Assembly (NCBI GenBank): GCA_965652645.1
Contig: CBFGXE010000003.1
Coordinates: 48,151-112,150, forward strand
DNA from: an uncultured bacterium
GTDB taxonomy: Bacteria; Pseudomonadota; Gammaproteobacteria; Steroidobacterales; Steroidobacteraceae
DNA: 64,000 bases
Reading direction: 5' to 3'
The position numbers and the translations under genes are program-made. Shown here in pieces: positions 24,781 to 38,984 of this stretch (positions within the stretch are counted from its first letter, which is position 1; each line of letters opens with the position of its first letter). The notes under the pieces were generated by a model. The model was not told the DNA's origin. It ran no database searches and worked only from the letters and a program-made list of their open reading frames with translations.

Positions 24781-26880
24781 TCACCACATGTCGCGCAGGC
24801 GCCCGGTGGCGTCGATGCTCACCGGATCCTCCGCCGCGGCCAGGCGCGAATCGGAGGCCCGCGCGCTGACGAAGGAAGCCTGCTCGAAGCACTTCATCAC
24901 CTTGTCGGTGACGAAGCGGCTGCGGCCGCCATAGACATGCGCGTCGCCGCGCGGAGACTGCTGGGTGAGCGGGAACTTCAGCGGCTGGATCAGCTGCAAT
25001 TCGTTGCGGGCGCGGGTCATCGCCACATACAGCAGCCGCCGCTCCTCGTCGATCTGTTCGGGCTTGCTGGCGAATTCGTTCGGGAAGCTGCCGTCCACCA
25101 CGTTGAGCACGTACACCGTGTCCCACTCCATGCCCTTGGCCGAGTGCACGGTGGACAGCACCAGGTAATCCTCGTCGAGGTTGCCCTTGCCCGACAGGTC
25201 GCTGGTGGACTGGGGCGGATCGAGCGTGAGCTCGGTGAGGAAACGCTCGCGGCTGGGGAACTGCTGCGAGAGCTGGTCGAGCTGGTCCAGGTCGCCGATG
25301 CGCGTGTGGAAATGCTCGTAGATGCGCTCCAGGTGCGGCTGGTACCACTCGCGCACCTGGCGCACCTGGCCCGGCCAGGGGCGGCCGGGCTCGGCGAGCT
25401 TTTCCATCAGCCCGGCCAGGCGGCGGAAGTCGCGCTCCACGGCGGCGGGCACCTTGATGCCGGCCAGCGACTTCAGCGAGCCGCCGGCCTCGGCCAGGGC
25501 ATCGAGCGTCCAGCGCGCATTCACCGGCCCCATGCCGGGCAGCAGCTGCAGCGCGCGGAAGGCGGCCAGGTCGTTGCGCGGGTTGTCCGCCCAGCGCAGC
25601 ACCGACAGCATGTCCTTCACGTGCGCGCCCTCGAGGAACTGCAGGCCGCCGTATTTCACGAAGGGAATGCGGCGGCGGGCCAGCTCCACCTCGAGCAGGT
25701 CGCTGTGGCTGCCGCTCCTGAACAGCACGGCCTGGCGGCGCAGGCCCACGCCGCCCTCGCGTCGCTGCAGCACCTGCTGCGCCACGTATTCGGCCTGGGA
25801 GTCCAGGTCATCCACGGTGACGAAATGCGGCGCGGTGCCGCCGGGCCGGGTGGCCAGCAGGTGCTTGCGGAACTGGCGCGGCGCCTCGGCCATCAGCGCG
25901 TTCGCGGCGTCGAGCACGGACTGCGTGGAGCGGTAGTTCTGCCCCAGCGGGATCACCTCGGCCGCCGGCGTGAAGCGGTCAGGGAAGCCCAGGATGTTCT
26001 CCACCGTGGCGGCGCGGAAGGCATAGATGGCCTGCGCGTCGTCGCCCACCACGGTGAGGCCGGCGCCATCCGGCTTCATGGCCAGCACGATGTCTGCCTG
26101 CAGCTTGTTGGTGTCCTGGTACTCATCGACCAGCACGTGGTCGAACTGGCTGCCCACGTGCCGCGCCAGCTTCGGCTCGGACATCAGGATGCTCCAGTAG
26201 AGCAGCAGGTCGTCGTAGTCGAGCAGGCCCAGCTGCTGCTTGCGCGCCACGTAGGCGCGGTAGAGTTTCACCAGGTCAGGCTCCCACTGCGCGCACCAGG
26301 GAAACTGGTCGCGCAGCGTGTCGGCCAGCGGGCGGCCGGTATTCACGCGATGCGAGTAGATGGCCAGGCAGGTGTCCTTGCGCGGGAAGCGTTGCGTGGA
26401 CTCCGCCAGCCCGAGCTCGGTGCGAATGGTGTCGAGCAGGTCCGCGGCATCGGCGCGGTCGATCACCGAGAAGGCCGGGTCGAGCTTCAGCTGCGGGGCG
26501 TAGTGGCGCAGCAGGCGGTTGCCCAGCGAGTGGAAGGTGCCTGTCCAGGTGAGCCGCTGCCCGATGAGGCGCGACCTGCCGCCCAGCGTGTCATCCAGCG
26601 ACTGGCGCAGCACCTCCAGCGCACGGCGCCGCATCTCCACGGCCGCGCGGCGCGTGAAGGTGAGCAGCATGATGCGATGGGGATCCACGCCGTTCACGAC
26701 CAGGTGCGCCACGCGATGCGCCAGCGTGCTGGTCTTGCCCGTGCCTGCCCCGGCGACCACCAGCAAGGGGCCGGCGCGCAGCGGCCCGCCCGGCACGGGC
26801 TCGCCGAAGCTCGCGGCCTTGCGCTGCGCCGTGTTGAGGGATTCCAGATGGGAGGGAACTGCGGACATAATCGACCGCAA
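24781..26880 (-). CDS. ATP-dependent DNA helicase, UvrD/Rep/PcrA superfamily 1
   Basis: 699 aa. Walker A LLVVAGAGTGKTSTLAHRVAHL, motif II VLVDEYQDTN, and TVHSAKGMEWDTVYV and LLYVAMTRAR motifs. Confidence 0.85.
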   Translation of the reverse strand: MRSIMSAVPSHLESLNTAQRKAASFGEPVPGGPLRAGPLLVVAGAGTGKTSTLAHRVAHLVVNGVDPHRIMLLTFTRRAAVEMRRRALEVLRQSLDDTLGGRSRLIGQRLTWTGTFHSLGNRLLRHYAPQLKLDPAFSVIDRADAADLLDTIRTELGLAESTQRFPRKDTCLAIYSHRVNTGRPLADTLRDQFPWCAQWEPDLVKLYRAYVARKQQLGLLDYDDLLLYWSILMSEPKLARHVGSQFDHVLVDEYQDTNKLQADIVLAMKPDGAGLTVVGDDAQAIYAFRAATVENILGFPDRFTPAAEVIPLGQNYRSTQSVLDAANALMAEAPRQFRKHLLATRPGGTAPHFVTVDDLDSQAEYVAQQVLQRREGGVGLRRQAVLFRSGSHSDLLEVELARRRIPFVKYGGLQFLEGAHVKDMLSVLRWADNPRNDLAAFRALQLLPGMGPVNARWTLDALAEAGGSLKSLAGIKVPAAVERDFRRLAGLMEKLAEPGRPWPGQVRQVREWYQPHLERIYEHFHTRIGDLDQLDQLSQQFPSRERFLTELTLDPPQSTSDLSGKGNLDEDYLVLSTVHSAKGMEWDTVYVLNVVDGSFPNEFASKPEQIDEERRLLYVAMTRARNELQLIQPLKFPLTQQSPRGDAHVYGGRSRFVTDKVMKCFEQASFVSARASDSRLAAAEDPVSIDATGRLRDMW

Positions 26881-26958
26881 CTATAGCCAATGCGGTTTCC
26901 GCGTGCCTTGAGCCGTAGCGCATATCCAGCGCCTTGTCGCAACAACGCAGGTTAATCC

Positions 26959-27477
26959 ATGAGTGAAAAGCAGACGGTGTTCAGCGGCACCGTGATCTCC
27001 GTCAACGTCGAACAGGTGGCGCTGCCCAACGGCACCCGCGCGCGCTACGAGATCGTGCACCACCCTGGCGGCGCCGCCGTGGTCGCCGTGGATGACGGGC
27101 AACGGGTCTGCCTGCTGCGCCAGTACCGGCCGGCTGGCGGTGGCTGGGTCTGGGAACTGCCCGCGGGGCGCTTGGAGCCCCGCGAGCCCCCGGATTGCAC
27201 CGCGCGGCGCGAATTGCGCGAAGAAGCCGGCTGCGAGGCGGAGAGCTGGGAATCGCTGGGCAGCATCCTCTCCTCGCCCGGTGTCTTTTCGGAAACCATC
27301 CACCTGTACCTGGCGCGCGGCCTCAGGCAGGGCGCCAGCAGCCATGAGCAGCACGAAGTGATCGAGGTGCACTGGGTGCCGCTGGCTGATGCGGCGCGTC
27401 AGGCGCTCAGCGGCGAATTGCGGGATGCCAAAACTGTGATAGGCCTCCTGCGCGCGATGAGCCACATGTCACAATGA
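26959..27477 (+). CDS. NUDIX hydrolase (ADP-ribose pyrophosphatase-like)
   Basis: 172 aa. Nudix box GRLEPREPPDCTARRELREEAGCE and NudF-like topology. Confidence 0.85.
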   Translation: MSEKQTVFSGTVISVNVEQVALPNGTRARYEIVHHPGGAAVVAVDDGQRVCLLRQYRPAGGGWVWELPAGRLEPREPPDCTARRELREEAGCEAESWESLGSILSSPGVFSETIHLYLARGLRQGASSHEQHEVIEVHWVPLADAARQALSGELRDAKTVIGLLRAMSHMSQ

Positions 27478-27512
27478 CAGGAGATCTGGTAGCGACTGGT
27501 ATCTTCCTGGTG

Positions 27513-27830
27513 ATGGGCAAGAAAGACGACAAGTTCTCGATGCATGTGCCGGAGGAAGACTCCGAGCGGCAGATGCCCGACCACCTGGAGATCATCGAGA
27601 CCGGTCCTGGCGGCAAGCCGAAGAATCGCCTGCAGGGCGGCGCCTACGACCCCTACCAGAAGCAGGACCCGGGCTCCCCGGGCGACACGGCGCGCATCCG
27701 CAAGCCGCGCGTGGACCTGCGCAAGCTCTCCGAGTGGATCAAGACCACGCAGCAGGTGAAGGCGCTGCGCGAGGAAGACCTGCGCGAGGCCGCGCGCCTG
27801 GCCGGGAAGGGCGGCAAGCCCCGCAAGTAG
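27513..27830 (+). CDS. hypothetical basic, disordered-looking protein
   Basis: MGKKDDKFSMHVPEEDSERQ...RKPRVDLRKLSEWIKTTQQVKALREEDLREAARLAGKGGKPRK. High third-position GC consistent with real coding. Start uncertain (ATG 27474 or 27513). No family recognised. Confidence 0.5.
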   Translation: MGKKDDKFSMHVPEEDSERQMPDHLEIIETGPGGKPKNRLQGGAYDPYQKQDPGSPGDTARIRKPRVDLRKLSEWIKTTQQVKALREEDLREAARLAGKGGKPRK

Positions 27831-28955
27831 TCAGGCCGGATGCAGCGGCCGCCAGCGCGCCCGTGCATCCAGCAGGCGCGGCAGGGCCAGCAGGCCCGCA
27901 GCCAGCGCGATCACCGCGGCATGTGCCCACCACAAACCCGGCACCGGCGGCAGTTCGCCGCGTTCCAGCAGCGTGCGGCCGCTGGTGAGCAGGCCCGCAT
28001 GCAACGCGAACAGCAGCACTGCCAGCGGCACGCGCGCATGGCGCCCCTGCCGCGGGCGCAGCCGTGACAGTGGCACCGCGAGGAACCCGAGCACCAGCAC
28101 GCTGGCCACCCAGCCGATGCGCCAGTGCAGCTCCGCCACATGGCGGGGATCGGTCGAGGCCAGCAGCACGCCGTTGGCCAGTCCGTCCACGCGCGGGCGC
28201 CCCGGCAGCCGCGCCTGCGGCACGGCGAGCCGTACCAGCTGTTCCCTGAAGCGGGTGATGCGCCAGTCCAGTCCGCCCGGCGTGCCCTCGTAACCCTCGC
28301 CGTCGAAGAGGCTCACCAGGATGAAGTCGCCCTCGGGCGCGATGCGGTAACGCGCCCGCTCGGCCAGCAGCACCTGCAGCCGCTGCGCACCGGCGCGGAC
28401 AGGCAGGTCGCGCTCGATGAACACCTCGCGCAGTGTGCCGTCGGGATCGGCGGTGCGGAAGTGCAGCGTGGTGCCCTCGCCCACGTCGCGGAACTCGCCG
28501 GGCGCCAGCCCGCGCGTCACGGCGGTGCGCAACGCCGCCAGCCGCAGCGCCGCTACCTCGCGCGCGGCAGCGGGTGCATCGATGAAGGCCACCCAGGCGG
28601 CCAGCAGCGCCACCGGCAACACCACCGCCCCGGCAGCCAGGTAGAGCACGGAACGCGGCATGCCCGCCGCCTGCGCGGCGGTGACCTCGCTGTCGTAGTA
28701 GAGGCGTCCCAGCCCCAGCACGCCGCCGAGCACCACCGCGAAGGGCAGGATCACCCCGAGGTTGCTGCGCAGGGAGAGCAGCACCAGGCGCGGCACGCTG
28801 GCGCCGGGAATCTGCCCGTCGGCGGCGCGTCCCATCACGAAGGAGAACTGGTAGACCAGCAGCACGGCCAGCAGGATCACGGCCACCAGCAGGGTCTGCG
28901 CCGCGATCGCGCGCAGCACATGGCGGAAGAAGATGCCCCGCGCCGCCGCGCGCAT
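27831..28955 (-). CDS. LptF/LptG family permease (YjgP/YjgQ)
   Basis: 374 aa. N-terminus IFFRHVLRAIAAQTLLVAVILLAVLLV. Three TMs, a periplasmic beta-jellyroll-sized insert, then three TMs, typical of the family. No partner LptF/G gene is adjacent. Confidence 0.8.
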   Translation of the reverse strand: MRAAARGIFFRHVLRAIAAQTLLVAVILLAVLLVYQFSFVMGRAADGQIPGASVPRLVLLSLRSNLGVILPFAVVLGGVLGLGRLYYDSEVTAAQAAGMPRSVLYLAAGAVVLPVALLAAWVAFIDAPAAAREVAALRLAALRTAVTRGLAPGEFRDVGEGTTLHFRTADPDGTLREVFIERDLPVRAGAQRLQVLLAERARYRIAPEGDFILVSLFDGEGYEGTPGGLDWRITRFREQLVRLAVPQARLPGRPRVDGLANGVLLASTDPRHVAELHWRIGWVASVLVLGFLAVPLSRLRPRQGRHARVPLAVLLFALHAGLLTSGRTLLERGELPPVPGLWWAHAAVIALAAGLLALPRLLDARARWRPLHPA

Positions 28956-28958
28956 GGC

Positions 28959-29600
28959 CTACCAGGGCGCGTCGGCGCGGCGCGCGTAGCGGAACCAGGG
29001 GTCGGATGGCCCCGGCACCGCAACGCCCGCTGCATCGCGCTGCAGCTCATACAGGGAGACGCCGTCGGCATCGAGCTCCAGGCGCTCTTCCACGCGCAGC
29101 GTCTCGCCGGTGCCCGGCGCGGAAATGCGGCAGCCGCTGCTGCCGCTGCCGGTGAAGCCGCCGCCGCTGCGCGTGACCAGGATGTCGCACCCCAGGCGCG
29201 GCTTCACGTCCTGCGCCAGCATGCTCTTGAAGAGGTCGCGGTTCAGGTGGCCGTCGCGCCAGCGCGAAGGCTCCACCAGGTCGGCCTTCGACAGCAGGGC
29301 CCGTTCGCCGTCCTCCGCGGGGCGCAGCACCAGCAGGTATTGCGCGAACACGCGCCGCGGGTCATCGGCGGCCATCTCCTGCACGTAGAAAACATGCCTG
29401 GCCACCTGCGCGGCCTGCACCGGCGCGATCACCAGGTGCACGGCCGGGTGCCCGCCACCGGTGCGCGACTGCGCCAGGTTGTCGTAGCTGCCGGGCAGCA
29501 TGGTCGCCAGCTGCGTTGCGAAGAGTTCGCCGCGCTCCGGCTGCGAGGCGCACGCCGCCAGCAACAGGAGTGCACACCACAATGAATTCCTAACCACCAT
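28959..29600 (-). CDS. CpcT/CpeT-like (DUF1001) beta-barrel lipoprotein
   Basis: 213 aa from MVVRNSLWCALLLLAACAS (lipobox). Blocks LATMLPGSYDNLAQS, HVFYVQEMAADDPRRVFAQYLLVL, RLGCDILVTRSGGGFTGSGSSGCRI and DPWFRYAR are colinear with remembered CpcT blocks (FSNQAQA, FFVEQAY..PYRLRVLKL, GC..V...G..F.G....GC, GPFYFVR). Confidence 0.55.
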   Translation of the reverse strand: MVVRNSLWCALLLLAACASQPERGELFATQLATMLPGSYDNLAQSRTGGGHPAVHLVIAPVQAAQVARHVFYVQEMAADDPRRVFAQYLLVLRPAEDGERALLSKADLVEPSRWRDGHLNRDLFKSMLAQDVKPRLGCDILVTRSGGGFTGSGSSGCRISAPGTGETLRVEERLELDADGVSLYELQRDAAGVAVPGPSDPWFRYARRADAPW

Positions 29601-30627
29601 AGACCACCCGCCATTGCGCCGGATAAGTGAGGCCAAGCTTGACGATTGAATCGAGCAGCGCCGGATAGTCGCGCCCGGCCGCCGCCGCGGCGCAGGCGAA
29701 ATCCTCCTCGCGGGCCAGGTGCGGGTTCGCATTGGCCTCCAGCGCGTAGACGCTGCCGTCCGCGCGCATGCGGAAGTCCATGCGCGCGTAGCCGGTGAGG
29801 CCCAGCGCGCGGTAGATGCGGCGCGTGAGCCGGTCGAGCTGGGCCTGCACGCCGGGCGGCAGGTCGCGCGCCGGGGCGCTGTCGATGCCGTAGCGGGCGC
29901 GGTACTTGGCGTCCCACTTCACCTTGCGCGTGGCGATGGCGCTGCCCTTGTCGGACATGCTGCCGAAGTTCAGCTCCCATACCGGGAAGGTGGTGATGCG
30001 CTGGTTGCCCAGCGCGCCCACGTACAGTTCCCGCCCCTCGATGTATTCCTCGACCAGCGCATCGGACTTGTGCTGTTCGATCACGAACTCCACCCGCTCC
30101 CTCAGCTGCCCGGCATTGGTCACCACCGAGGCCTGCGCGATGCCCTGGGAGGCGTCGTCGGTGCTGGACTTCACGAACAGCGGGTAGCGGATGCGGCGCG
30201 GGATCTTCACCTTCAGCTCGCGGCGGAACACCTGGAACAGGGGCGTGGGGATACGGTGGTACGCAAACACCTGCTTGCACAGCGCCTTGTCGCGCGACAG
30301 CAGCAGCCCGCGCGGATTGCAGCCGGTGTAGGGCTGGCGCAGCATCTCGAGGAAGGCCACCACGTGCTGGTCGTAGCTGACGATGCCGTCGAACTCCTCC
30401 AGCAGGTTGAAGACCACGTCCGGCTGCCATTCGGCGATGGTGGCGCGCAGCTCGGTGATGGTGTCGAGCACCCTCAGCGCGCGCACCTCGTGGCCGGAAG
30501 CCTTCAGCGTCTGGATGACGTCGAACTCGGTGCGCCACTCCCCGATGGCCTTGGCATCCTGCCCGTCGAGGGAATCGGGCGGCATCAGGGTCGGATGCAG
30601 CACCACCAGTACGCGCGAACGCTTCAT
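29590..30627 (-). CDS. ATP-grasp ligase, D-alanine--D-alanine ligase-like family
   Basis: 345 aa. Pre-ATP-grasp N-domain (VLVVLH..PDVVFNLLEEFDG), central domain (LSRDKALCKQVFAYHRIPTP..YPLFVKS), and C-terminal catalytic block GYARMDFRMRADGSVYALEANANP. ATGA overlap with the upstream peptidase gene and an 11-nt overlap with the downstream lipoprotein gene. Confidence 0.8.
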   Translation of the reverse strand: MKRSRVLVVLHPTLMPPDSLDGQDAKAIGEWRTEFDVIQTLKASGHEVRALRVLDTITELRATIAEWQPDVVFNLLEEFDGIVSYDQHVVAFLEMLRQPYTGCNPRGLLLSRDKALCKQVFAYHRIPTPLFQVFRRELKVKIPRRIRYPLFVKSSTDDASQGIAQASVVTNAGQLRERVEFVIEQHKSDALVEEYIEGRELYVGALGNQRITTFPVWELNFGSMSDKGSAIATRKVKWDAKYRARYGIDSAPARDLPPGVQAQLDRLTRRIYRALGLTGYARMDFRMRADGSVYALEANANPHLAREEDFACAAAAAGRDYPALLDSIVKLGLTYPAQWRVVYGG

Positions 30628-31655
30628 AGGTTCAGTTGCGGACGCTCCCTTTCGCCGAACAGCCGCGCCATGCTGCCGAGCAGCCAGCGCGCGTGCGGCA
30701 TCGCGTCCCGCTGCGACCCCCTGAGGTAAAGCCCCATATTATCCGCGCGCTCGATGGCGATGCGCAGTACCTGCTGCAGGTTATACGCTTCGGCCGCGCC
30801 CTGGCTGCCGGCCAGCAGCTCGCGGCGCCGGGCGCGCAGGAAGGTTGCCGCCCTGGTCAGCCCGGCGCGCGGCGGGCGCCGCGTGAACACGCGCAGCAGC
30901 AGCGTGTCGGATGCCTCGCTGCACCAGTCGGTCTGGCGGGCGAGCTTCTCGCGGTAGTGTTCGGCCAGCGTGCGCTGGTTCTTTCCCAGCGGCTCGATGT
31001 GCGCGCGGCTGGTGACCCGCGGCGGCTCGGTGGACAGCTGGCGCATCAGCTCGTCCACGTAGCGCAATTTCTCCCAGGCCGGCCAGCTCGCATAGCTGCG
31101 CCGCCAGTCCGAGTTCGGCTTCAGCCATACCGCGAAGGTCTCGGCGAAGTCCTCGGTGGGATGCGCCTGCGCGTACCAGTCGCCCAGGTGCTGCACGAAA
31201 CGCCGGCTGCCCGGCCGCGCGCGGTAGGAATCGGGGTATCGCAGCGACGCCGGGCCGAACAGCTCGCGCCAGCGGGCGCGGCGGCGCAGGCGGTAGGCCG
31301 TGTCGATGGCGTGGCCCACCTCATGGCGCAGGATGCGCATCATCCACTTCTGGTTGCCCCCCTCCACCTGCCGCATCATGCGCCGCTCCAGCCGCATCAG
31401 CCGTGGATGGGCCAGGTAGAAGGGCACGGCGATGCCCGGCACGCCGTCGGGGGAGAACCACTCCTCGGCCAGCCACATGTGCGGGCGGAAGTTCAGGCCG
31501 CGCCGCGCCAGCTCGTCGTGCACGCGGTTCAGGCGCCGTTCCAGCGACGTGCCACGCAGCTTCAGCCCCAGGTCGCAGAAGCGCACCTGCAGCAGCTCGG
31601 TATCGGTCAGGCGCGACCAGTGCGCGCCGCCGCGCAGCTCACGTGTCCTGGGCAT
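30624..31655 (-). CDS. putative zinc-binding metallopeptidase (HExxH)
   Basis: 343 aa. HEVGH at residues 111-115 (about 31311-31325), followed by HPTEDFAETFAVW, which could supply a third ligand. No signal peptide. Resembles the 'putative zinc-binding metallopeptidase' family as I remember it. Confidence 0.7.
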   Translation of the reverse strand: MPRTRELRGGAHWSRLTDTELLQVRFCDLGLKLRGTSLERRLNRVHDELARRGLNFRPHMWLAEEWFSPDGVPGIAVPFYLAHPRLMRLERRMMRQVEGGNQKWMMRILRHEVGHAIDTAYRLRRRARWRELFGPASLRYPDSYRARPGSRRFVQHLGDWYAQAHPTEDFAETFAVWLKPNSDWRRSYASWPAWEKLRYVDELMRQLSTEPPRVTSRAHIEPLGKNQRTLAEHYREKLARQTDWCSEASDTLLLRVFTRRPPRAGLTRAATFLRARRRELLAGSQGAAEAYNLQQVLRIAIERADNMGLYLRGSQRDAMPHARWLLGSMARLFGERERPQLNL

Positions 31656-32169
31656 GCACCGGCTCCACTATCCAGTCGAGGATGTAGCGTTCCTGCGCTT
31701 CGGTTTCAGGCACGTGCGGCCACACGCCCGAACGGGCGTTGTGCTGCCACAGGCGGTTCAGCTCGGTCATGGCCTGCTGCGGAGCCTGGCCGCATTCCCT
31801 GAGGTAGCAGCCGATGGTCATGCCGGTGCGCCCGTAGCCGGCGCGGCAGTGCACGTAGACCGCCCCCTCCCCGGACAGCTCCTGTGCCAGCACCCGCTGG
31901 ATGCGGCGCATGTCCGCCGGCTTCGCCGGCACGGAATGATCGGGAACCGGCAGGCGGTGCACCCTGGCTTCGGCAGGCAGGAAAGACCTGTAGTCAGGCA
32001 TTTCCCCTTCCTGCGTCAGGTCGATGAAGGTGCGCACGCCGGCGGCCAGCAGCAGCTGCAGGCGGCGGCTGTGGCCGGCCACGCTGCCCGCACAGGGGTG
32101 CTCGCCGGCGAGCAGGCGGCCACGCTCCACCCAGTAGCTGTTGGCCAGCGGCGGTGGCGGCATCCTCAT
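31639..32169 (-). CDS. cytoplasmic Cys-based protein phosphatase (dual-specificity/PTP fold)
   Basis: 176 aa. P-loop [11 protein letters not shown] (HCX5R) with an upstream general-acid candidate, VPDHSVP. No signal peptide. 17-nt overlap with the peptidase gene and an ATGA overlap with ttcA. Confidence 0.8.
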
Positions 32170-32987
32170 GCGTGCTCCCCCGGCGCCAGTCCCCTGAAGT
32201 CGAAGAGGCGGGTATCGGCCAGGGTGGAAGGCTCCACGTTGCGCAGCGCGCTGAAGAGGGTCTCGATGCGCCCGGGATGTTCAGCCTCCCACGCAGCCAG
32301 CATCTGCTTCACCTGCGCGCGCTGCAGGTTCTCCTGCGAACCGCACAGGTCGCAGGGAATGATGGGGAAACCCCGGGCGCTCGCATAGCGTGCGATGTCG
32401 CGCTCGGCCACATAGGCCAGCGGCCGGATCACGATGTGGCGGCCATCGTCCGAGCGCAGCTTGGGCGCCATGGCCTTCAGCCTGCCGCCGTGGAAGAGGT
32501 TCAGGAACAGCGTCTCGACGATGTCGTCGCGGTGGTGGCCCAGGGCAATCCTGGTCACGCCGTTCTCCGCCGCATAGCGATACAGCGCTCCGCGGCGCAG
32601 GCGCGAGCACAGGCTGCACATGGTGCGGCCCTCGGGGATCACCCGCTTCACCACGCTGTAGGTGTCCTGCTCGATGATGTGGTAGTCCACGCCCAGCGAG
32701 GCCAGGTATTCCGGCAGCACATGCGCCGGAAAACCCGGCTGCTTCTGGTCCAGGTTCACCGCCACCAGCGAGAACTCCACCGGCGCGCTGCGCTGCAGGG
32801 ACAGCAGCATGTCGAGCAGGGTCCAGGAATCCTTGCCGCCCGACAGGCACACCATCACGCGGTCGCCCGCGCCGATCATGGCGTAGTCCTCGATGGCCTT
32901 GCCCACCAGGCCGCGGATCTGCGCGGCCAGCCGGCGCTTGGTGGAAGACAGTGGCGGCGGTGCGGCAACGACGGCTTCGATGCTCAC
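32166..32987 (-). CDS. ttcA: tRNA 2-thiocytidine(32) synthetase
   Basis: 273 aa. PP-loop [16 protein letters not shown] and Cys motifs [10 protein letters not shown] and PCDLCGSQ typical of TtcA. The GTG start overlaps the carboxypeptidase stop (GTGA). Confidence 0.9.
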
Positions 32988-34486
32988 CGTGCCTCCTCCA
33001 GGTAACGTGCTTCCAGGTAGCGCAGTGCGGGTGCGGCGGACAGCGGCCGGCCGGTGACTTCCTGCGCCAGCTCGCCCGGACCGAGCCGCGCGCCGGCGGC
33101 GTGCACCTTCTCCTTCAGCCAGCCCGTCACCACGCCGAGTTCGCCGCGGGCAATGCGGGCATCCAGGTCCGGTGTCTGTGCACGCAGGCTCTCGTAGAGC
33201 TGTCCGGCAATCACCGCGCCGATGGCATAGGAAGGAAAGTAGCCGAAGGCGCCATGCGCCCAGTGCACGTCCTGCAGGCAGCCCTCGGCGGGATTGGCAG
33301 GCGTGACTTCCAGCCTGTCGCGCATGCCCTGGTTCCAGGCTTCGGGCAGGTCGCGCACCGCCAGCCTGCCATCAAGCAGGTCCTTCTCGATGGCGTAACG
33401 CAGCAGCACGTGCATGGGATAGGTGAGCTCGTCGGCATCCACGCGGATCGCCCCGCGACGCACCTGCGTGACCAGGCGGTAGAGGTTGCCCGGCTCCCAT
33501 TCCGGCCCGCTGACACCGAAATGTTTCTCCAGCAGCGGCCGCAGCCATTCCAGGAACGGCCGGCTGCGGCAGATGACCATCTCGATGAACAGCGCCTGGC
33601 TTTCCTCCAGCGCCATGCCGCGGGCGCGGCCCACCGGCTGCGTGTACCAGGCCTGCGGCACGCCCACTTCGTACAGCGCATGGCCGGTCTCGTGCATGGC
33701 CGCCAGCAGCCCCTTGAAGGGATCGGCCTGGTCGAAGCGCGTGGTGACGCGGATGTCGCCGGCCACGCCCTCGGTGAAGGGATGGTCGCTTTCATCCAGG
33801 CGGCCGCGGCTGAAGTCGAAACCGAATGCCTTCATCAGCTCCACGGCCAGCGCGCGCTGGCGGCCGGGCGTGAACTTGCCGGCCAGCGGCAGCGCCGGCG
33901 AGGCCTGCTGGCGTTCGATGGCCTCGCGGATCAGCGAGGGCACGCGCCGCGCCAGCGCGCGGAAGATGCTGTCAACCAGGGCGCTGCGCATGCCGGGCGT
34001 GTAGTCATCCATCAGCGCGTCATAGGGGGAAAGCTGCAGCGCCTGGCCCAGCAGCGCGGCCTTGTCGCGCACCAGGTGCAGCACCTCGGTGAGCACCGGC
34101 GCAAACAGGCCGAAGTCCTTCTTCTCGCGCGCCTCGGCCCAGCGCACCTCGGCCAGCGAGGTGGCGCGGGCCAGGCGGCCGATCAGCGACACCGGCGTGG
34201 CGATGGCATGGTCGCGCTGGCGCGCCATCTCGCGCAGGTTGGCGCGCTGCCACGCATCCAGCGTGGCGATGCCGGCCTGCGCACGCTCGATCAGCCGGCT
34301 CACGCGCGGCGAGGTGAGGATGTTGTGCTGTTCGATCTCGATGGCCGCCAGCTGTTCACCGCGCACGCCGGCGCTGCCGCGCGGCATCATCACGGCGGCA
34401 TCCCAGCGCAACAGCGACAGCGCGCCACTGAAAGCGTGCAGACGCTGCCACTCCTGTTCGAGCTGTTTGTAGGGGGTGGCGGCCAT
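32984..34486 (-). CDS. M32 family metallocarboxypeptidase (Taq-like)
   Basis: 500 aa. HPF block [10 protein letters not shown], zinc site [10 protein letters not shown], and downstream [18 protein letters not shown]. Confidence 0.9.
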
Positions 34487-34583
34487 CGGGGGTGTCCCCG
34501 CGGCGAGGGGCCGCGGGGCAGTCGCCCATTCTAGCGAGGACGGCCGGGGGACGCCGGAACAACTGCCCAGGCAGCCGCTTCGC

Positions 34584-37500
34584 TCAGTGCGGGGCCGCCT
34601 CCGGAGCCACCAGGCCCGGCTGGGCGGCCTGGCCGACCTTCAGCCGATCGATGAGCCGCGACAGGTACTGCGGCGAGCGGGTATTGCGGGCGATCTTCAG
34701 GTAGAGCGCCGGCACCAGGAACAGGGTCAGGGCCACCGCGAACAGGGAGCCGAAAAGCACGGTTGCGCCGATGGACTGGCGGCTCTCGGCGCCGGCGCCG
34801 GTGGCAATGGCCAGCGGCACCGCGCCCGCCGCCGTGGCCAGGGTGGTCATGACCACCGGGCGCAGGCGCGTGACCGAGGCCTCGATGATGGCCTCGACAA
34901 ACTCCACGCCGCGGTCACGCAGCTGGTTGGCGAACTCCACGATGAGGATGCCGTTCTTGCTGGCGATGCCGATCAGCATCACCGCGCCGATCTGGCTGAA
35001 GACATTGATGGAGGAGCCGTACAGCCACAGCCCCACCAGCGCGCCAGTCAGCGCCATGGGCACCGCGGCCAGGATCACCAGCGGGTGCACGAAACTCTCG
35101 AACTGCGCCGCCAGCACCAGGTACACGATGAGCAGTGCGAAGGCGAAGGTGAGCATCAGGCCGCCCGAGGAGCGCTTCAGCTCGCGCGACTCGCCGTCGT
35201 ATTCGATCTGGATGGGTACCTCGCCCTGCTGCTGGCGCACCACGTTTTCCAGGTAGTCCAGCGCATCGCCGAGCGCATATCCCGGCCCGAGGTTGGCGCT
35301 CACCATCACCGAGCGCAGGCGGTTGAAGCGGCGCAGTTCCGAAGCCGCGCCGGTCTCCTGGATGGAAACCACGCTGGCCAGCGGTACCAGCTCGCCGCTG
35401 CGCGCGGAGCGCACGTAGATGTTGTCCAGGTCGCCCACCGAGGCGCGCTGTTCGTCGCGCGCCTGCAGCACCACGTTGTATTCATCGCCGCCCATGGGGA
35501 AGGTGCCCACCACGCGCGAACCGAGCATGGTCTCCAGCGCGCGCGACACGTCGGTCACCGAGACGCCGAGGTCGGCGGCCTTGTTGCGGTCGACCGCCAC
35601 GCGCAGCTGCGGCTGGCGCTCCTCGTAGTCCATCTCCAGGTTGGTGAGACGCGGGTTCTCCCCGGAGGCAACAGCGATGACCTTGTTGGCCACCTCGGCA
35701 ACCTGCTGGAACTCCGGTCCCTGCAGCACCACCTGCACCGGCTTGCCGGAGCCGCCCAGGCCGCCGGGCGTGCGGGGCACCACGCGTGCGCCCGGGATGT
35801 CGCGCGTGCGCGCCTGCAGGCGGGCCACGATCTGCTCGGCGGTATCGGGCCGCTCGCCCCAGTTCTTCAGCGGCATGAACACCATGCCATTGCTCACCGA
35901 GGCCTGGTTGTTCCAGTTGCCGGTGCGGCGGATCACGCGCGTGGCATTGCCGCGCTCCACCTCGTCGTAGGCGATGGCCGCCACCAGCTCGAGCTGGCGC
36001 TGGGTGTATTCCATGCTCGAGCCTTCCGGCGCCTGCACCATGATCTGCACGCGACCGCGGTCCTCGCGCGGGGCCAGCTCGGTGGCCAGCTGCATGCCCT
36101 TCCACGGCCAGCCCACCACCAGCAGCGAGATCAGCAGCACCGCCGACAGCCCGGCCATGGACAGCAGCAATACCGGCCGCGCACCGCCCAGGGTCCAGCG
36201 CAGCATGTTGCCGTAGGAGCGGGCGCAGGCCTGGAACAGGCGATCAACCCCCGCTGCCAGCCGGCCGCGATGGATGCCATTGGCGAACAGCCTGGAGGTC
36301 ATCATCGGGGTGAGCGTGAGGGCCACCAGCGCCGAGAACAGCACCGCCGCGGCGATGGACACGCCGAACTCGGAGAACAGCCGTCCCACGTTGCCCTGCA
36401 GGTAGGAGATGGGCAGGAACACCGACACCAGCACCAGCGTGGTGGCGATCACGGCGAAGCCGATCTCGCGGCTGCCGTTGATGGCCGCCAGCAGCGGCGG
36501 TTCCTTCAACTCTATGCGGCGCACGATGTTCTCGAGCACCACGATGGCGTCGTCCACCACCAGGCCGATGGCCAGCACCGCGCCCAGCAGCGTCAGCGTG
36601 TTGATGGAATAGTCCAGCGCCGCCATCACCACCGCCGCGGCCAGGATGGACACGGGGATGGTCGCGGCCGGGATCAGCGTGGCCCTGAGCGTGCCCAGGA
36701 ACAGGAAGATGACCACCAGCACGATGACGCCCGTCTCGGCCAGCACCTTCATCACCTTCACCATGGACTCGCGGATGAACACCGAGTTGTCGATGTTCAC
36801 CTCGAAGGTGATGTCCTCTGGCAGGCCCTCGCGGATCAGCGCGATCTCCTTCTTCACCGCCGCCGCCACGTCGAGCACGTTGGCCGTGGACAGCGGCGTG
36901 ACCGGCATCAGCAGCGCCGGCCCCGTATCCGTGGCCGAGCCGCCGCGATGCGTCTCGGCCGCCAGCTGCACCTGCGCCACCTCGCCCAGCCGCACGAGGT
37001 AGCCATCGGCGCCGCGGCCGACCACCAGGTTGCGGAATTCCTCCTCGTTGCGCAGCGAGGTGTCGGTGCGCAGCGTGAACTCGCGCTGCTGCGACTCGAT
37101 GCGCCCGGCTGGCAGCTCGATGTTCTCGCTGCGCAGCGCGTTCTCGATGTCGTTGACCGTCACCTGGCGGGCGGCCATCGCGCCCCGGTCCAGCCAGATG
37201 CGCATGGCGTAGCGGCGCGCGCCGTTGATCATCACGTTGGCCACGCCTGGCACCGCGGCCAGGCGGTCCACCAGGTAGCGCTCCGCGTAGTCGGTGAGCT
37301 CCAGCGCGTTGCGGGTGTTGCTGGAGAGGATGCCGAACAGCACCGCGTCGGCGCCGCTTTCCACCTTCTCGACCTGCGGCGGGTCGGCCTCGTCGGGCAG
37401 GCGGCGCATCACGCGCGTGACGCGGTCGCGCACGTCGTTGGCGGCAGAGTCGATGTTGCGGCTGGCATTGAACAGCACGTCGATGTTGGCGCGCTCGTCG

Positions 37501-37754
37501 CGGCTGCGCGAGGTCACCTTGTCGACGCCCTCCAGCCCGGCGACTTCGTTCTCGATGAGCTGCGTGATGCGGGTCTCGATCACGCCGGCGTTGGCACCAC
37601 GATAGGTGACATTGACGCTGACCGCCGGCTGCTGGATGTCCGGGTATTCGCGGATGGACAGGCGCAGCGCCGCCATGATGCCCACGATGAGCAGCAGCAG
37701 CGACAGCACGGTGGCGAAGACCGGCCGCCGGATCGAGAGCTCGGAAATGATCAT
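34584..37754 (-). CDS. efflux RND transporter permease subunit
   Basis: 1056 aa. MIISELSIRRPVFATVLSLLLLIVGIMAALRLSIREYPDI and GLVVDDAIVVLENIVRR. 12-TM architecture. Confidence 0.95.
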   Translation of the reverse strand: MIISELSIRRPVFATVLSLLLLIVGIMAALRLSIREYPDIQQPAVSVNVTYRGANAGVIETRITQLIENEVAGLEGVDKVTSRSRDERANIDVLFNASRNIDSAANDVRDRVTRVMRRLPDEADPPQVEKVESGADAVLFGILSSNTRNALELTDYAERYLVDRLAAVPGVANVMINGARRYAMRIWLDRGAMAARQVTVNDIENALRSENIELPAGRIESQQREFTLRTDTSLRNEEEFRNLVVGRGADGYLVRLGEVAQVQLAAETHRGGSATDTGPALLMPVTPLSTANVLDVAAAVKKEIALIREGLPEDITFEVNIDNSVFIRESMVKVMKVLAETGVIVLVVIFLFLGTLRATLIPAATIPVSILAAAVVMAALDYSINTLTLLGAVLAIGLVVDDAIVVLENIVRRIELKEPPLLAAINGSREIGFAVIATTLVLVSVFLPISYLQGNVGRLFSEFGVSIAAAVLFSALVALTLTPMMTSRLFANGIHRGRLAAGVDRLFQACARSYGNMLRWTLGGARPVLLLSMAGLSAVLLISLLVVGWPWKGMQLATELAPREDRGRVQIMVQAPEGSSMEYTQRQLELVAAIAYDEVERGNATRVIRRTGNWNNQASVSNGMVFMPLKNWGERPDTAEQIVARLQARTRDIPGARVVPRTPGGLGGSGKPVQVVLQGPEFQQVAEVANKVIAVASGENPRLTNLEMDYEERQPQLRVAVDRNKAADLGVSVTDVSRALETMLGSRVVGTFPMGGDEYNVVLQARDEQRASVGDLDNIYVRSARSGELVPLASVVSIQETGAASELRRFNRLRSVMVSANLGPGYALGDALDYLENVVRQQQGEVPIQIEYDGESRELKRSSGGLMLTFAFALLIVYLVLAAQFESFVHPLVILAAVPMALTGALVGLWLYGSSINVFSQIGAVMLIGIASKNGILIVEFANQLRDRGVEFVEAIIEASVTRLRPVVMTTLATAAGAVPLAIATGAGAESRQSIGATVLFGSLFAVALTLFLVPALYLKIARNTRSPQYLSRLIDRLKVGQAAQPGLVAPEAAPH

Positions 37755-38893
37755 GACGGCTGGGAGGAGCCGGGCTGCAGGACGGGCGCCCCCGCTCCGC
37801 CCCCGGCGGCGCCGGGCGCTTCGGCTTCACGGACCAGCACCCCGTCGCGCAGCTTGAGCGTGCCCTCGGTCACCACGCGGTCGCCGGCCCGCAGGCCATC
37901 GGTGATCTCCACGAAGCCGGGTTCGCGCCGGCCCAGCGTGACCTCGCGCTTCTCGACGACCTCCCCGCGCACCACGTAGACGAACTGCCGTGCCTGCTCG
38001 GGCACCAGCGCTTCCTCGGGGATCACCAGCGCGGGCCGCTGGTCCTGCGAGAGCGCGACGGTGAGGAACATGCCGGGCTTGAGCGCGAGGTCCGGATTGG
38101 GCACGGCCGCCCGCACGGTCACCGAGCGGGAGGACGGATCCACGCGCGAGTCGACGCTGATCACCCTGCCGGTGAACTGCCGGCCGGGATAGGCATTGGT
38201 GCGCGCCACCACCGCCTGCCCGGCCTTCAGCGCACCCACCTCGGCCTCGGGCACGGAGAAGTCGACCTTGATGGTGCTGGTGTCATCCAGCGTGGTGACC
38301 AGCGTGCCGGGATTGATCAGCGCGCCGACGCTCACCCGTCGCAGGCCCACGTGCCCGGTGAAGGGTGCGCGGATGTAGGTGTCGGAAAGGCGCGATTGCG
38401 CCGCGGCCACGCGCGCCTCGTTGGACTTCATCGTGGCCTCGAGCTGCTCGTGCTGCGCCTTCGACAGCGCCTGCGTCGCCAGCAGCTCGCGGGCGCGGCC
38501 GAACTGGCTGCGGCTCTCTTCATAGGCCGCGGTGGCGGCTGCGAGGTCGGCCTCGGCAGTGCCGCGGTCCAGCTCGACCAGCACCTGGCCCCGCTGCACG
38601 GGCTGTCCGTCGGTGAAATGGATGGCCGTGACGATGTTGCTGGTCTTGGCCGTGATGTCCACGGCCTCGTTGGCACCGGCGGTGCCGATGGCCTCCAGCC
38701 CCACGTTGAGCTGGCGCTGGCGCGCCGGGGCGGTGACGACGCGGACCGGGGCCTGTGCGCCGCCCATTGCGGATCCGGACATGGCGTTGTTGTCCGCCGG
38801 CGTGTCGTGCTTGGACTCATAGATGGCCCAACCCGCGCACACCACGGCCAACGCGACACTGACGACTGCTACTACGGTGCGCGGCTCTGACAT
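37751..38893 (-). CDS. efflux RND transporter periplasmic adaptor subunit
   Basis: 380 aa from MSEPRTVVAVVSVALAV (ATG 38893, frame-checked). Blocks TAIHFTDGQPVQRGQVLVELD and SDTYIRAPFTGHVG. ATGA overlap with the pump gene. The track ORF extension to 39415 is non-coding-like. Confidence 0.9.
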   Translation of the reverse strand: MSEPRTVVAVVSVALAVVCAGWAIYESKHDTPADNNAMSGSAMGGAQAPVRVVTAPARQRQLNVGLEAIGTAGANEAVDITAKTSNIVTAIHFTDGQPVQRGQVLVELDRGTAEADLAAATAAYEESRSQFGRARELLATQALSKAQHEQLEATMKSNEARVAAAQSRLSDTYIRAPFTGHVGLRRVSVGALINPGTLVTTLDDTSTIKVDFSVPEAEVGALKAGQAVVARTNAYPGRQFTGRVISVDSRVDPSSRSVTVRAAVPNPDLALKPGMFLTVALSQDQRPALVIPEEALVPEQARQFVYVVRGEVVEKREVTLGRREPGFVEITDGLRAGDRVVTEGTLKLRDGVLVREAEAPGAAGGGAGAPVLQPGSSQPS

Positions 38894-38984
38894 AGGCCGG
38901 CCATTATCGCACCCGTACCGCGGGGCGCGGGGCGGCAATTGGCATTCCCTGATGCCAACGCACACATCCGGCCCTGATGGGGGC

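Follow-up and report, generated by a model that had tools for sequence, protein, structure and literature searches.

A string of seven tightly packed minus-strand genes, running from an M32 carboxypeptidase through the tRNA-thiolating enzyme TtcA, a Cys-phosphatase, a HExxH protein, an ATP-grasp ligase and a lipoprotein to the permease LptF, lies at positions 27831-34486 of a 64,000-nucleotide (nt) stretch of DNA from an uncultured bacterium of the family Steroidobacteraceae (GenBank assembly GCA_965652645.1, contig CBFGXE010000003.1; the whole stretch is referred to below as the window). In this study, we report a comparative analysis of the string and propose that it is a lineage-specific mosaic built round an ancient module of two genes, encoding the HExxH protein, a member of the Peptidase_Mx family (PF15887, hereafter Mx), and the ATP-grasp ligase. 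The two proteins would form a pair of the synthetase/amidase type, working either as a make-and-break cycle or in a process-then-ligate manner, and we assign this reading a probability of about 0.55. An initial annotation of the same DNA had treated the seven genes as one coupled unit that could make or edit a small peptide or a C-terminal tag, possibly destined for the envelope. The conserved unit was placed instead at the two-gene module because only these two genes persist together in distant loci. The features of the module are as follows.

30624-31655, minus strand: Peptidase_Mx HExxH zincin-like protein (Mx), cytoplasmic; PF15887, 34.9 bits (cutoff 27), HEVGH
29590-30627, minus strand: Ddl-family ATP-grasp ligase, divergent; Dala_Dala_lig_C PF07478, 90 bits
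30624-30627, minus strand: ATGA stop/start overlap of the Mx and ATP-grasp genes; probable translational coupling

Conservation of the Mx/ATP-grasp pair

About 170 related loci were compared overall, in scans that were all anchored on Mx and that each took the best 80 loci. The within-family set held one genome per species and comprised 80 Steroidobacteraceae-type loci (56-96% Mx identity), in which the window proteins were searched by tblastn; the denominators of 66 and 67 given for this set are the loci with enough flanking sequence. The distant set comprised 80 metagenome loci with 42-57% identity to the window's Mx, and the ATP-grasp gene was counted there only where the sequence downstream of Mx reached 1250 nt or more (n=57). 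The closest relatives of both the ATP-grasp and the Mx protein came from Steroidobacteraceae metagenome-assembled genomes (MAGs).

The ATP-grasp gene was located directly downstream of Mx, on the same strand, in 54 of the 57 distant loci, and the three loci that lacked it all belonged to a single clade. The 4-nt overlap between the two genes was present at 52 of 63 distant junctions and at 66 of 72 Steroidobacteraceae-type junctions, while the other junctions in the Steroidobacteraceae-type loci varied widely (M32 and TtcA overlapped in 29%, and the gap between the phosphatase and Mx had a median of 37 nt). On gene-called and Pfam-annotated contigs, Mx was likewise followed by a Dala_Dala_lig_C gene, mostly with a 4-nt overlap, in Nitrospira, Vicinamibacterales, one Gemmatimonadetes MAG and other lineages. 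Adjacency, gene order and the 4-nt overlap of the pair are all shared by Pseudomonadota, Nitrospirota, Acidobacteriota and Gemmatimonadota, and the link between the ATP-grasp and the HExxH gene that the initial annotation had drawn from a single genome therefore extends to at least four phyla. Within each lineage the pair sits among housekeeping genes and not in mobile or defence islands. Together, these sequence comparisons support a functional link between the ATP-grasp and HExxH proteins.

The Mx family itself is large, with 2028 representatives after clustering at 50% and E ≤1e-30 for 658 of these, and a profile built from its divergent members retrieved proteins labelled Nitrospira, Vicinamibacterales/Acidobacteria and Gemmatimonadetes. 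No relevant literature was found on PF15887, on Peptidase_Mx together with ATP-grasp, or on a gene pair of a HExxH protein and a Ddl-like ligase. One metagenome locus carried the gene order Mx, ATP-grasp, Mx (L094:3338-6310). A 664-amino-acid (aa) protein, P0357, was considered as a Mx/ATP-grasp fusion (Rosetta stone) and rejected, being without an ATP-grasp domain.

Active site of the ligase and conserved motifs of Mx

In a PDB search, the closest solved relatives of the ligase were all Ddl or VanA, with E values down to 8e-22. The best NCBIfam Ddl model scored 125.8 bits against a cutoff of 243, and the ligase stayed below cutoff for every Ddl/Van NCBIfam model among the best 25 of 40 matched. 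The RimK model PF08443 reached 20.8 bits against a cutoff of 21, over residues 112-199 only. The ligase was then compared with E. coli DdlB, whose numbering is used here, by an alignment extended to 133 homologues from all sampled lineages. The residues K97, K144, E180, E187, R255, D257 and N272 were invariant in all 133 homologues and E270 was kept in 132; in DdlB these eight serve ATP/Mg2+ binding and catalysis. As judged from this alignment, the ligase should be catalytically active, with ATP/Mg2+-dependent acyl-phosphate chemistry.

The positions that bind D-alanine (D-Ala) in DdlB gave a different picture. There, E15 and S150 bind D-Ala1, with E15 holding its free amino group, and Y216 completes the active-site triad; G276 belongs to the D-Ala2 site, where S281 and L282 bind the D-Ala2 carboxylate. 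Only Y216 of the triad E15-S150-Y216 is retained in the ligase (132/133 homologues). The E15 position is K in 84 of the 133 homologues and otherwise hydrophobic, and the S150 position is A in 120. In the second site, the G276 position holds N, Q or H, the S281 position is E in 131/133 and the L282 position is D in 129/133. The near-invariant Glu-Asp at S281-L282 suggests that the nucleophile may be positively charged. The initial annotation had considered that the ATP-grasp enzyme might prove to be a genuine Ddl acting on D-Ala; with the D-Ala sites replaced across phyla and the scores below the Ddl cutoffs, it does not appear to be a true D-Ala-D-Ala ligase. The public annotation in the MAG and metagenome records seen is "D-alanine--D-alanine ligase", and this label is very likely wrong because the active-site comparison shows the D-Ala-binding residues replaced.

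Mx carries no signal peptide and has two motifs, HEVGH at residues 111-115 and EDFAETFA at residues 168-175, which were found in 89/92 and 91/92 distant representatives, respectively. Across 166 homologues, 68 positions were at least 97% identical, including H111, E112, H115, E168, D169 and E172; on this alignment evidence the protein is under strong constraint. A structure model built from a 104-sequence alignment reached a pLDDT (predicted local distance difference test) of 82.4, and in it E168, D169 and E172 fall on a predicted helix (residues 166-178), where any of the three would be a candidate for the third metal ligand of a gluzincin pattern. A first model, with a pLDDT of 70.6, had given no fold matches. 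When the better model was searched with Foldseek, anthrax lethal factor accounted for 9 of the top 10 matches, the best at E=0.083 and probability 0.54, and none reached E ≤0.001. Membership of Mx in the MtfA/peptidase M90 group was rejected, as the hhalign comparison with E. coli MtfA aligned just 14 columns round the HExxH motif, with a probability of 1.3%.

The seven-gene string and its neighbours

The remaining features of the string, whose family assignments are Pfam and NCBIfam profile matches judged against curated cutoffs, are as follows.

34487-34583, minus strand: intergenic leader between the resistance-nodulation-division (RND) pump gene and M32; 97 nt
32984-34486, minus strand: M32 (Taq-type) carboxypeptidase; Peptidase_M32 PF02074, 508 bits
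32166-32987, minus strand: TtcA, tRNA 2-thiocytidine(32) synthetase; NCBIfam equivalog NF007972, 457 bits (cutoff 272)
31639-32169, minus strand: DUSP23-like dual-specificity Cys-phosphatase; PTP-SAK/DSP, PF22784, 62.7 bits, HCX5R = HCRAGYGR
28959-29600, minus strand: CpeT/CpcT-family lipoprotein; PF06206, 63.7 bits, ATG at 29600, lipobox LLLLAAC
27831-28955, minus strand: LptF, lipopolysaccharide export permease; equivalog TIGR04407, 253 bits (cutoff 230)

The layout was read base by base. M32 and ttcA overlap by 4 nt (GTGA), ttcA and the phosphatase by 4 nt (ATGA), the phosphatase and Mx by 17 nt, Mx and ATP-grasp by 4 nt (ATGA), and ATP-grasp and the CpeT-like lipoprotein by 11 nt; a 3-nt gap separates the lipoprotein from LptF, and a 97-nt gap separates M32 from the RND pump gene upstream (34584-37754). 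The coordinates, junctions and seven family assignments of the initial annotation were all reproduced, and the TtcA translation shows the CSLC and CDLC cysteine motifs. The six tight junctions in a row form the longest such run in the window (naive P ~0.002). Gaps of ≤3 nt occur at 8 of the 22 other co-directional junctions of the window, so tight packing is common here, and because of this the packing alone says little on shared function; junction tightness on its own is weak evidence.

A sequence scan of the minus strand within the seven-gene cluster found no terminator-like site, and no sigma-70-like promoter was found at the cluster by a scan that is weak in a genome of 70% GC, the value across the 64-kb window. 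The 97-nt leader had no Rfam match and its folding was not significant (z = -1.53). The Rfam scan of 26500-35500 returned sub-threshold chance matches only, indicating no riboswitch or leader RNA. One of these, to the Guanidine-III riboswitch, lies within the M32 coding sequence (34051-34107, minus strand); it scores 21.6 bits, where the gathering score is 36 (E=0.42), and is almost certainly due to chance. A 92-aa open reading frame (ORF) at 29110-29388 on the plus strand, antisense to the CpeT-like gene, has a third-position GC of 0.946 against 0.897 for the CpeT-like gene and is a shadow-ORF artefact of high GC.

The flanks of the string are made up of housekeeping genes. Upstream lie a membrane fusion protein (MFP)-RND efflux pair, glgA, a LEA_2 protein gene and malQ; downstream lie genes for a Nudix hydrolase, a 118-aa protein and a UvrD-like helicase, and speA. 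The string ends with lptF, whose stop codon directly adjoins that of the convergent 118-aa gene, with zero gap (27830/27831). The 118-aa protein (27474-27830, plus strand) had no Pfam or PADLOC match; its gene has a 4-nt overlap with the Nudix gene upstream of it and is kept beside Nudix in the closer Steroidobacteraceae-type genomes, at 41-83% identity.

Conservation of the other five genes was uneven. Within the Steroidobacteraceae-type genomes, M32 was present in 63/67, TtcA was adjacent in 66/67 and the phosphatase was present in 63/67; the CpeT-like gene was detected in 40/66, which is probably an undercount, and LptF was adjacent in 20/66, closest relatives only. None of the distant loci had M32, a CpeT-like gene or LptF nearby, and no LptG-like gene was found in the 64-kb window. 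The initial annotation had placed the carboxypeptidase, the CpcT-like lipoprotein and LptF in one pathway with the pair, and this part of it does not hold, since none of the three accompanies the pair outside Steroidobacteraceae. The idea of an envelope-destined product likewise finds no support. Of the proposed conserved neighbourhood, the two-gene Mx/ATP-grasp core extends beyond close relatives and the seven-gene unit does not.

The flanking Nudix and UvrD-like genes were conserved in Steroidobacteraceae about as well as the M32-TtcA-PTP-Mx-ATP-grasp order (PTP denoting the phosphatase), and because these unrelated genes are equally conserved, much of the gene order can be put down to ordinary family-level synteny. 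In 13 relatives (L023, L024, L025, L032, L035, L037, L043, L044, L051, L052, L058, L070 and L078) an extra gene of ~800 nt, encoding a hydrophobic and apparently multi-pass membrane protein, lies between M32 and TtcA. The gene upstream of M32 was an RND pump in 27 loci (~27/63) and a divergent glgA in 34. As M32 abuts divergent glgA in those 34 relatives, the MFP-RND efflux pair of the window (34584-38902, minus strand) looks like a variable insertion.

The closest solved structures to the window's phosphatase, an unfused protein of 176 aa, are DUSP23-like. In the three Steroidobacteraceae genomes that lack the phosphatase altogether, the overlap is between TtcA and Mx themselves. The protein encoded between TtcA and Mx is, in 58 of 70 relatives, an N-terminal dual-specificity phosphatase (DSP) fused to an ADP-ribosylglycohydrolase (ARH; PF03747, E=6e-55), with a length of ~460-520 aa or more (e.g. 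L024:8441-9925, L067:8371-9900 and L172:5380-6963). No ADP-ribosylglycohydrolase remnant was found anywhere in the 64-kb window. Such a fusion is a hint that the substrates are phospho-ribosyl compounds or others related to ADP-ribose, and not phosphoproteins.

For the distant loci, neighbours were identified by unbiased clustering of flanking ORFs and a Pfam census of the 85 nearest neighbours, and three recurrent families only emerged: TtcA, low-molecular-weight protein tyrosine phosphatase (LMW-PTP) and GatA. TtcA was beside the pair in 8 Nitrospira-type loci, on the strand opposite to Mx. LMW-PTP (PF01451, CTGN[IV]FRS) was found in 7 loci (L098, L101, L106, L118, L122, L137 and L147; e.g. 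L137:4647-5234), between TtcA and Mx and on the Mx strand. It thus takes the same slot as the window's DSP phosphatase, though the two folds are unrelated. The loci with TtcA and LMW-PTP are Nitrospira; one of the eight TtcA loci (L150) matches Nitrospira sp. CR1.2, where the TtcA, Mx and ATP-grasp accessions are consecutive. The other Nitrospira loci, and all of those from Acidobacteriota and Gemmatimonadota, have neither TtcA nor a Cys-phosphatase. The occurrence of a Cys-phosphatase and TtcA beside the pair in two phyla is more than we would expect by chance, and an optional link may be real; the place given to them in the unit by the initial annotation is partly borne out by their recurrence in Nitrospira, but there the arrangement differs, the phosphatase is non-homologous, and most distant loci have neither.

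In one clade (L105, L108, L114, L129, L136, L158 and L167), the gene immediately upstream of Mx, and co-directional with it, encodes GatA (Glu-tRNA(Gln) amidotransferase subunit A). An 'Amidase' neighbour in the census (9/85) resolved to this housekeeping GatA of one clade. A link to an MscS channel was rejected, the family accounting for 2 of the 85 nearest neighbours only.

Proposed function and comparison with known systems

In the reading that we favour, the ligase would activate a carboxylate and join it to an amine other than D-Ala. The amine would probably be cationic, for example a polyamine, since a near-invariant Glu-Asp replaces the site that holds the D-Ala2 carboxylate. Mx would then cleave the bond so formed, or an amide bond much like it, and the pair would act as a make-and-break cycle, or process and then ligate, on a cytoplasmic small molecule or peptide. 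Because the 4-nt overlap is conserved, the two proteins are likely to be made in fixed proportion via translational coupling, perhaps as partners in a complex. On this proposal, the pair can do without its recurrent neighbours, the Cys-phosphatase and TtcA, and genome packing in Steroidobacteraceae has brought in M32, the CpcT-like lipoprotein, LptF and the RND pump as passengers. We lean slightly to a small-molecule substrate over a protein tag, because of the Ddl-type architecture and because no target ORF is conserved beside the pair. A fuller version is offered tentatively, as possible rather than probable: the pair may make and remove an undescribed amide product, either an amino acid or a peptide conjugated to a cationic amine, or a reversible tag on a translation-related protein, as a housekeeping-like function of soil and sediment bacteria in at least four phyla, sometimes wired to a Cys-phosphatase (sometimes ARH-fused) and to TtcA thiolation.

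Several points weigh against the synthetase/amidase-type reading. Mx is without a significant match to a solved peptidase, whether by PDB sequence or profile search or by fold, and its putative metal-dependent hydrolysis is read from the motifs only. A single alignment, with E. coli DdlB at 25% identity, underlies the idea of a cationic amine. In one clade (L087, L088, L100 and L123) a well-conserved Mx is retained without an adjacent ATP-grasp gene, and no Mx/ATP-grasp fusion protein was found. The Mx anchoring of the scans means that the pairing counts run from the Mx side and not from the ligase side, and the taxon labels were taken from MAG records.

An alternative that we regard as unlikely is reversible protein modification. 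Here the ATP-grasp enzyme would attach one or more amino acids to a carboxylate of a specific protein, at the C terminus or on a side chain; the target may have a role in translation. Mx would trim or remove this tag, in the manner of RimK and RimB on ribosomal protein S6 or of the tubulin ligase and carboxypeptidase, and the phosphatase would provide a second regulatory layer. RimK and RimB set a precedent (PMC7343187); anthrax lethal factor, which gives the top, sub-significant fold matches of Mx, is an endopeptidase with protein substrates; and the neighbours are translation-related in three lineages (TtcA in Steroidobacteraceae and Nitrospira, GatA in another clade). The loss of E15 would also fit an acyl donor other than a free amino acid. 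However, neither a target protein nor a small ORF recurs beside the pair, the ligase belongs to the Ddl type, in which the characterised enzymes use small-molecule substrates, with the RimK model just under its cutoff, and TtcA and GatA are housekeeping genes that may be chance neighbours and are absent from most distant loci. It is rather improbable that Mx is a non-catalytic or regulatory partner of the ligase (a scaffold, a specificity subunit or an inhibitor) or acts on an unrelated substrate. Its peptidase activity is putative and it has no significant similarity to solved peptidases, and strict translational coupling would fit an obligate complex; against this, the HExxH motif and the E168/D169/E172 helix hardly vary from phylum to phylum, a constraint that would be difficult to account for if there were no metal-dependent catalysis.

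The relationship of the ligase to Ddl and VanA (E to 8e-22), its public annotation and the general precedent of VanA/VanX, a ligase with a zinc-dipeptidase, could be taken to favour a cell-wall variant in which the ligase makes D-Ala-D-X or another muropeptide bond and Mx is a VanX-like dipeptidase. This is improbable, as the D-Ala1 (E15, S150) and D-Ala2 (G276, S281, L282) sites are replaced consistently across phyla, the ligase scores far under the Ddl/Van cutoffs among the best 25 of 40 models, no locus has a mur/fts or vanH/vanX-type context, and Mx is a HExxH protein and not of the VanX-type fold. About as improbable is a single pathway of all seven genes making or editing an envelope-destined peptide or C-terminal tag. 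The one-strand packing, the lack of an internal terminator-like site and the M32-TtcA-PTP-Mx-ATP-grasp order in most of the 80 Steroidobacteraceae-type genomes speak for it. Yet M32, CpeT and LptF never occur with the pair outside Steroidobacteraceae, and within it LptF and CpeT are found in 20/66 and 40/66; the Nudix and UvrD-like flanks are equally conserved, tight junctions are common in the genome, LptF and TtcA score as housekeeping equivalogs, and 13 genomes carry the unrelated insertion between M32 and TtcA. The comparative data thus largely refute the seven-gene pathway. Least credible of all is a cluster for a ribosomally synthesised or other peptide natural product, with the ATP-grasp enzyme modifying a ribosomal precursor and Mx serving as leader peptidase, even though an ATP-grasp enzyme with a peptidase follows the logic of graspetide-type clusters (PMC8939145). 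In ~130 loci no small ORF (18-75 aa) was conserved across lineages beside the pair, the recurrent clusters being shadow ORFs confined to close relatives; there is no common exporter or tailoring gene, and the pair lies among housekeeping genes in every lineage. An anti-phage defence system was also considered and rejected, with zero PADLOC matches for Mx, ATP-grasp, the phosphatase, the PTP-ARH fusion, CpeT or the 118-aa protein.

Two characterised systems would be the nearest functional analogues of the pair. One is trypanothione/glutathionylspermidine synthetase-amidase, in which an ATP-grasp C:N ligase is combined with an amidase that acts on what the ligase makes (PMC2427367); the other is RimK, again an ATP-grasp ligase, with RimB, a polyglutamate-specific protease that hydrolyses the RimK product (PMC7343187). 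The synthetase-amidase resembles the proposed module in holding a ligase and a hydrolase in fixed proportion, as opposing cytoplasmic activities, and the acidic nucleophile site found here would suit a polyamine-like amine. It differs in being one polypeptide with a papain-like Cys amidase and a GspS-type ligase, whereas here there are two proteins, a HExxH zincin-like protein and a Ddl-type ligase. In Pseudomonas, RimK and RimB (with RimA) are a co-transcribed ligase and dedicated removing protease with an extra signalling enzyme, comparable to the facultative phosphatase here (PMC7343187, PMC11957791). In contrast, RimK modifies the protein S6 with glutamate and its partner RimB is a retropepsin-like aspartic protease, while the present ligase lies below the cutoff of the RimK model and its partner belongs to another hydrolase class.

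Ddl and VanA share with the ligase the ATP-grasp subfamily fold and the ATP/Mg2+/acyl-phosphate residues, and VanA/VanX is a known pairing of a ligase with a zinc-dipeptidase; here, however, the D-Ala1 and D-Ala2 residues are replaced (Y216 being kept), the scores fall below the family cutoffs, cell-wall gene context is lacking and Mx is unrelated to VanX. Anthrax lethal factor and MtfA-type gluzincins have a HExxH motif followed ~50 residues on by a Glu-bearing helix, as Mx has in EDFAETFA, and lethal factor was the top structural match, but that similarity is not significant and the MtfA alignment is confined to the HExxH helix.

For the reading of operons, the string is a caution that perfect packing can hide a mosaic in which one real module is joined by several passengers. 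The pair is widespread and under strong purifying selection: Mx forms ~2000 clusters at 50% identity, and at least four phyla are represented. Identification of the substrate would give a function to two large families, and could bring to light a new cytoplasmic metabolite or a new reversible protein modification in groups of environmental importance such as Nitrospira, Acidobacteriota and Steroidobacteraceae.

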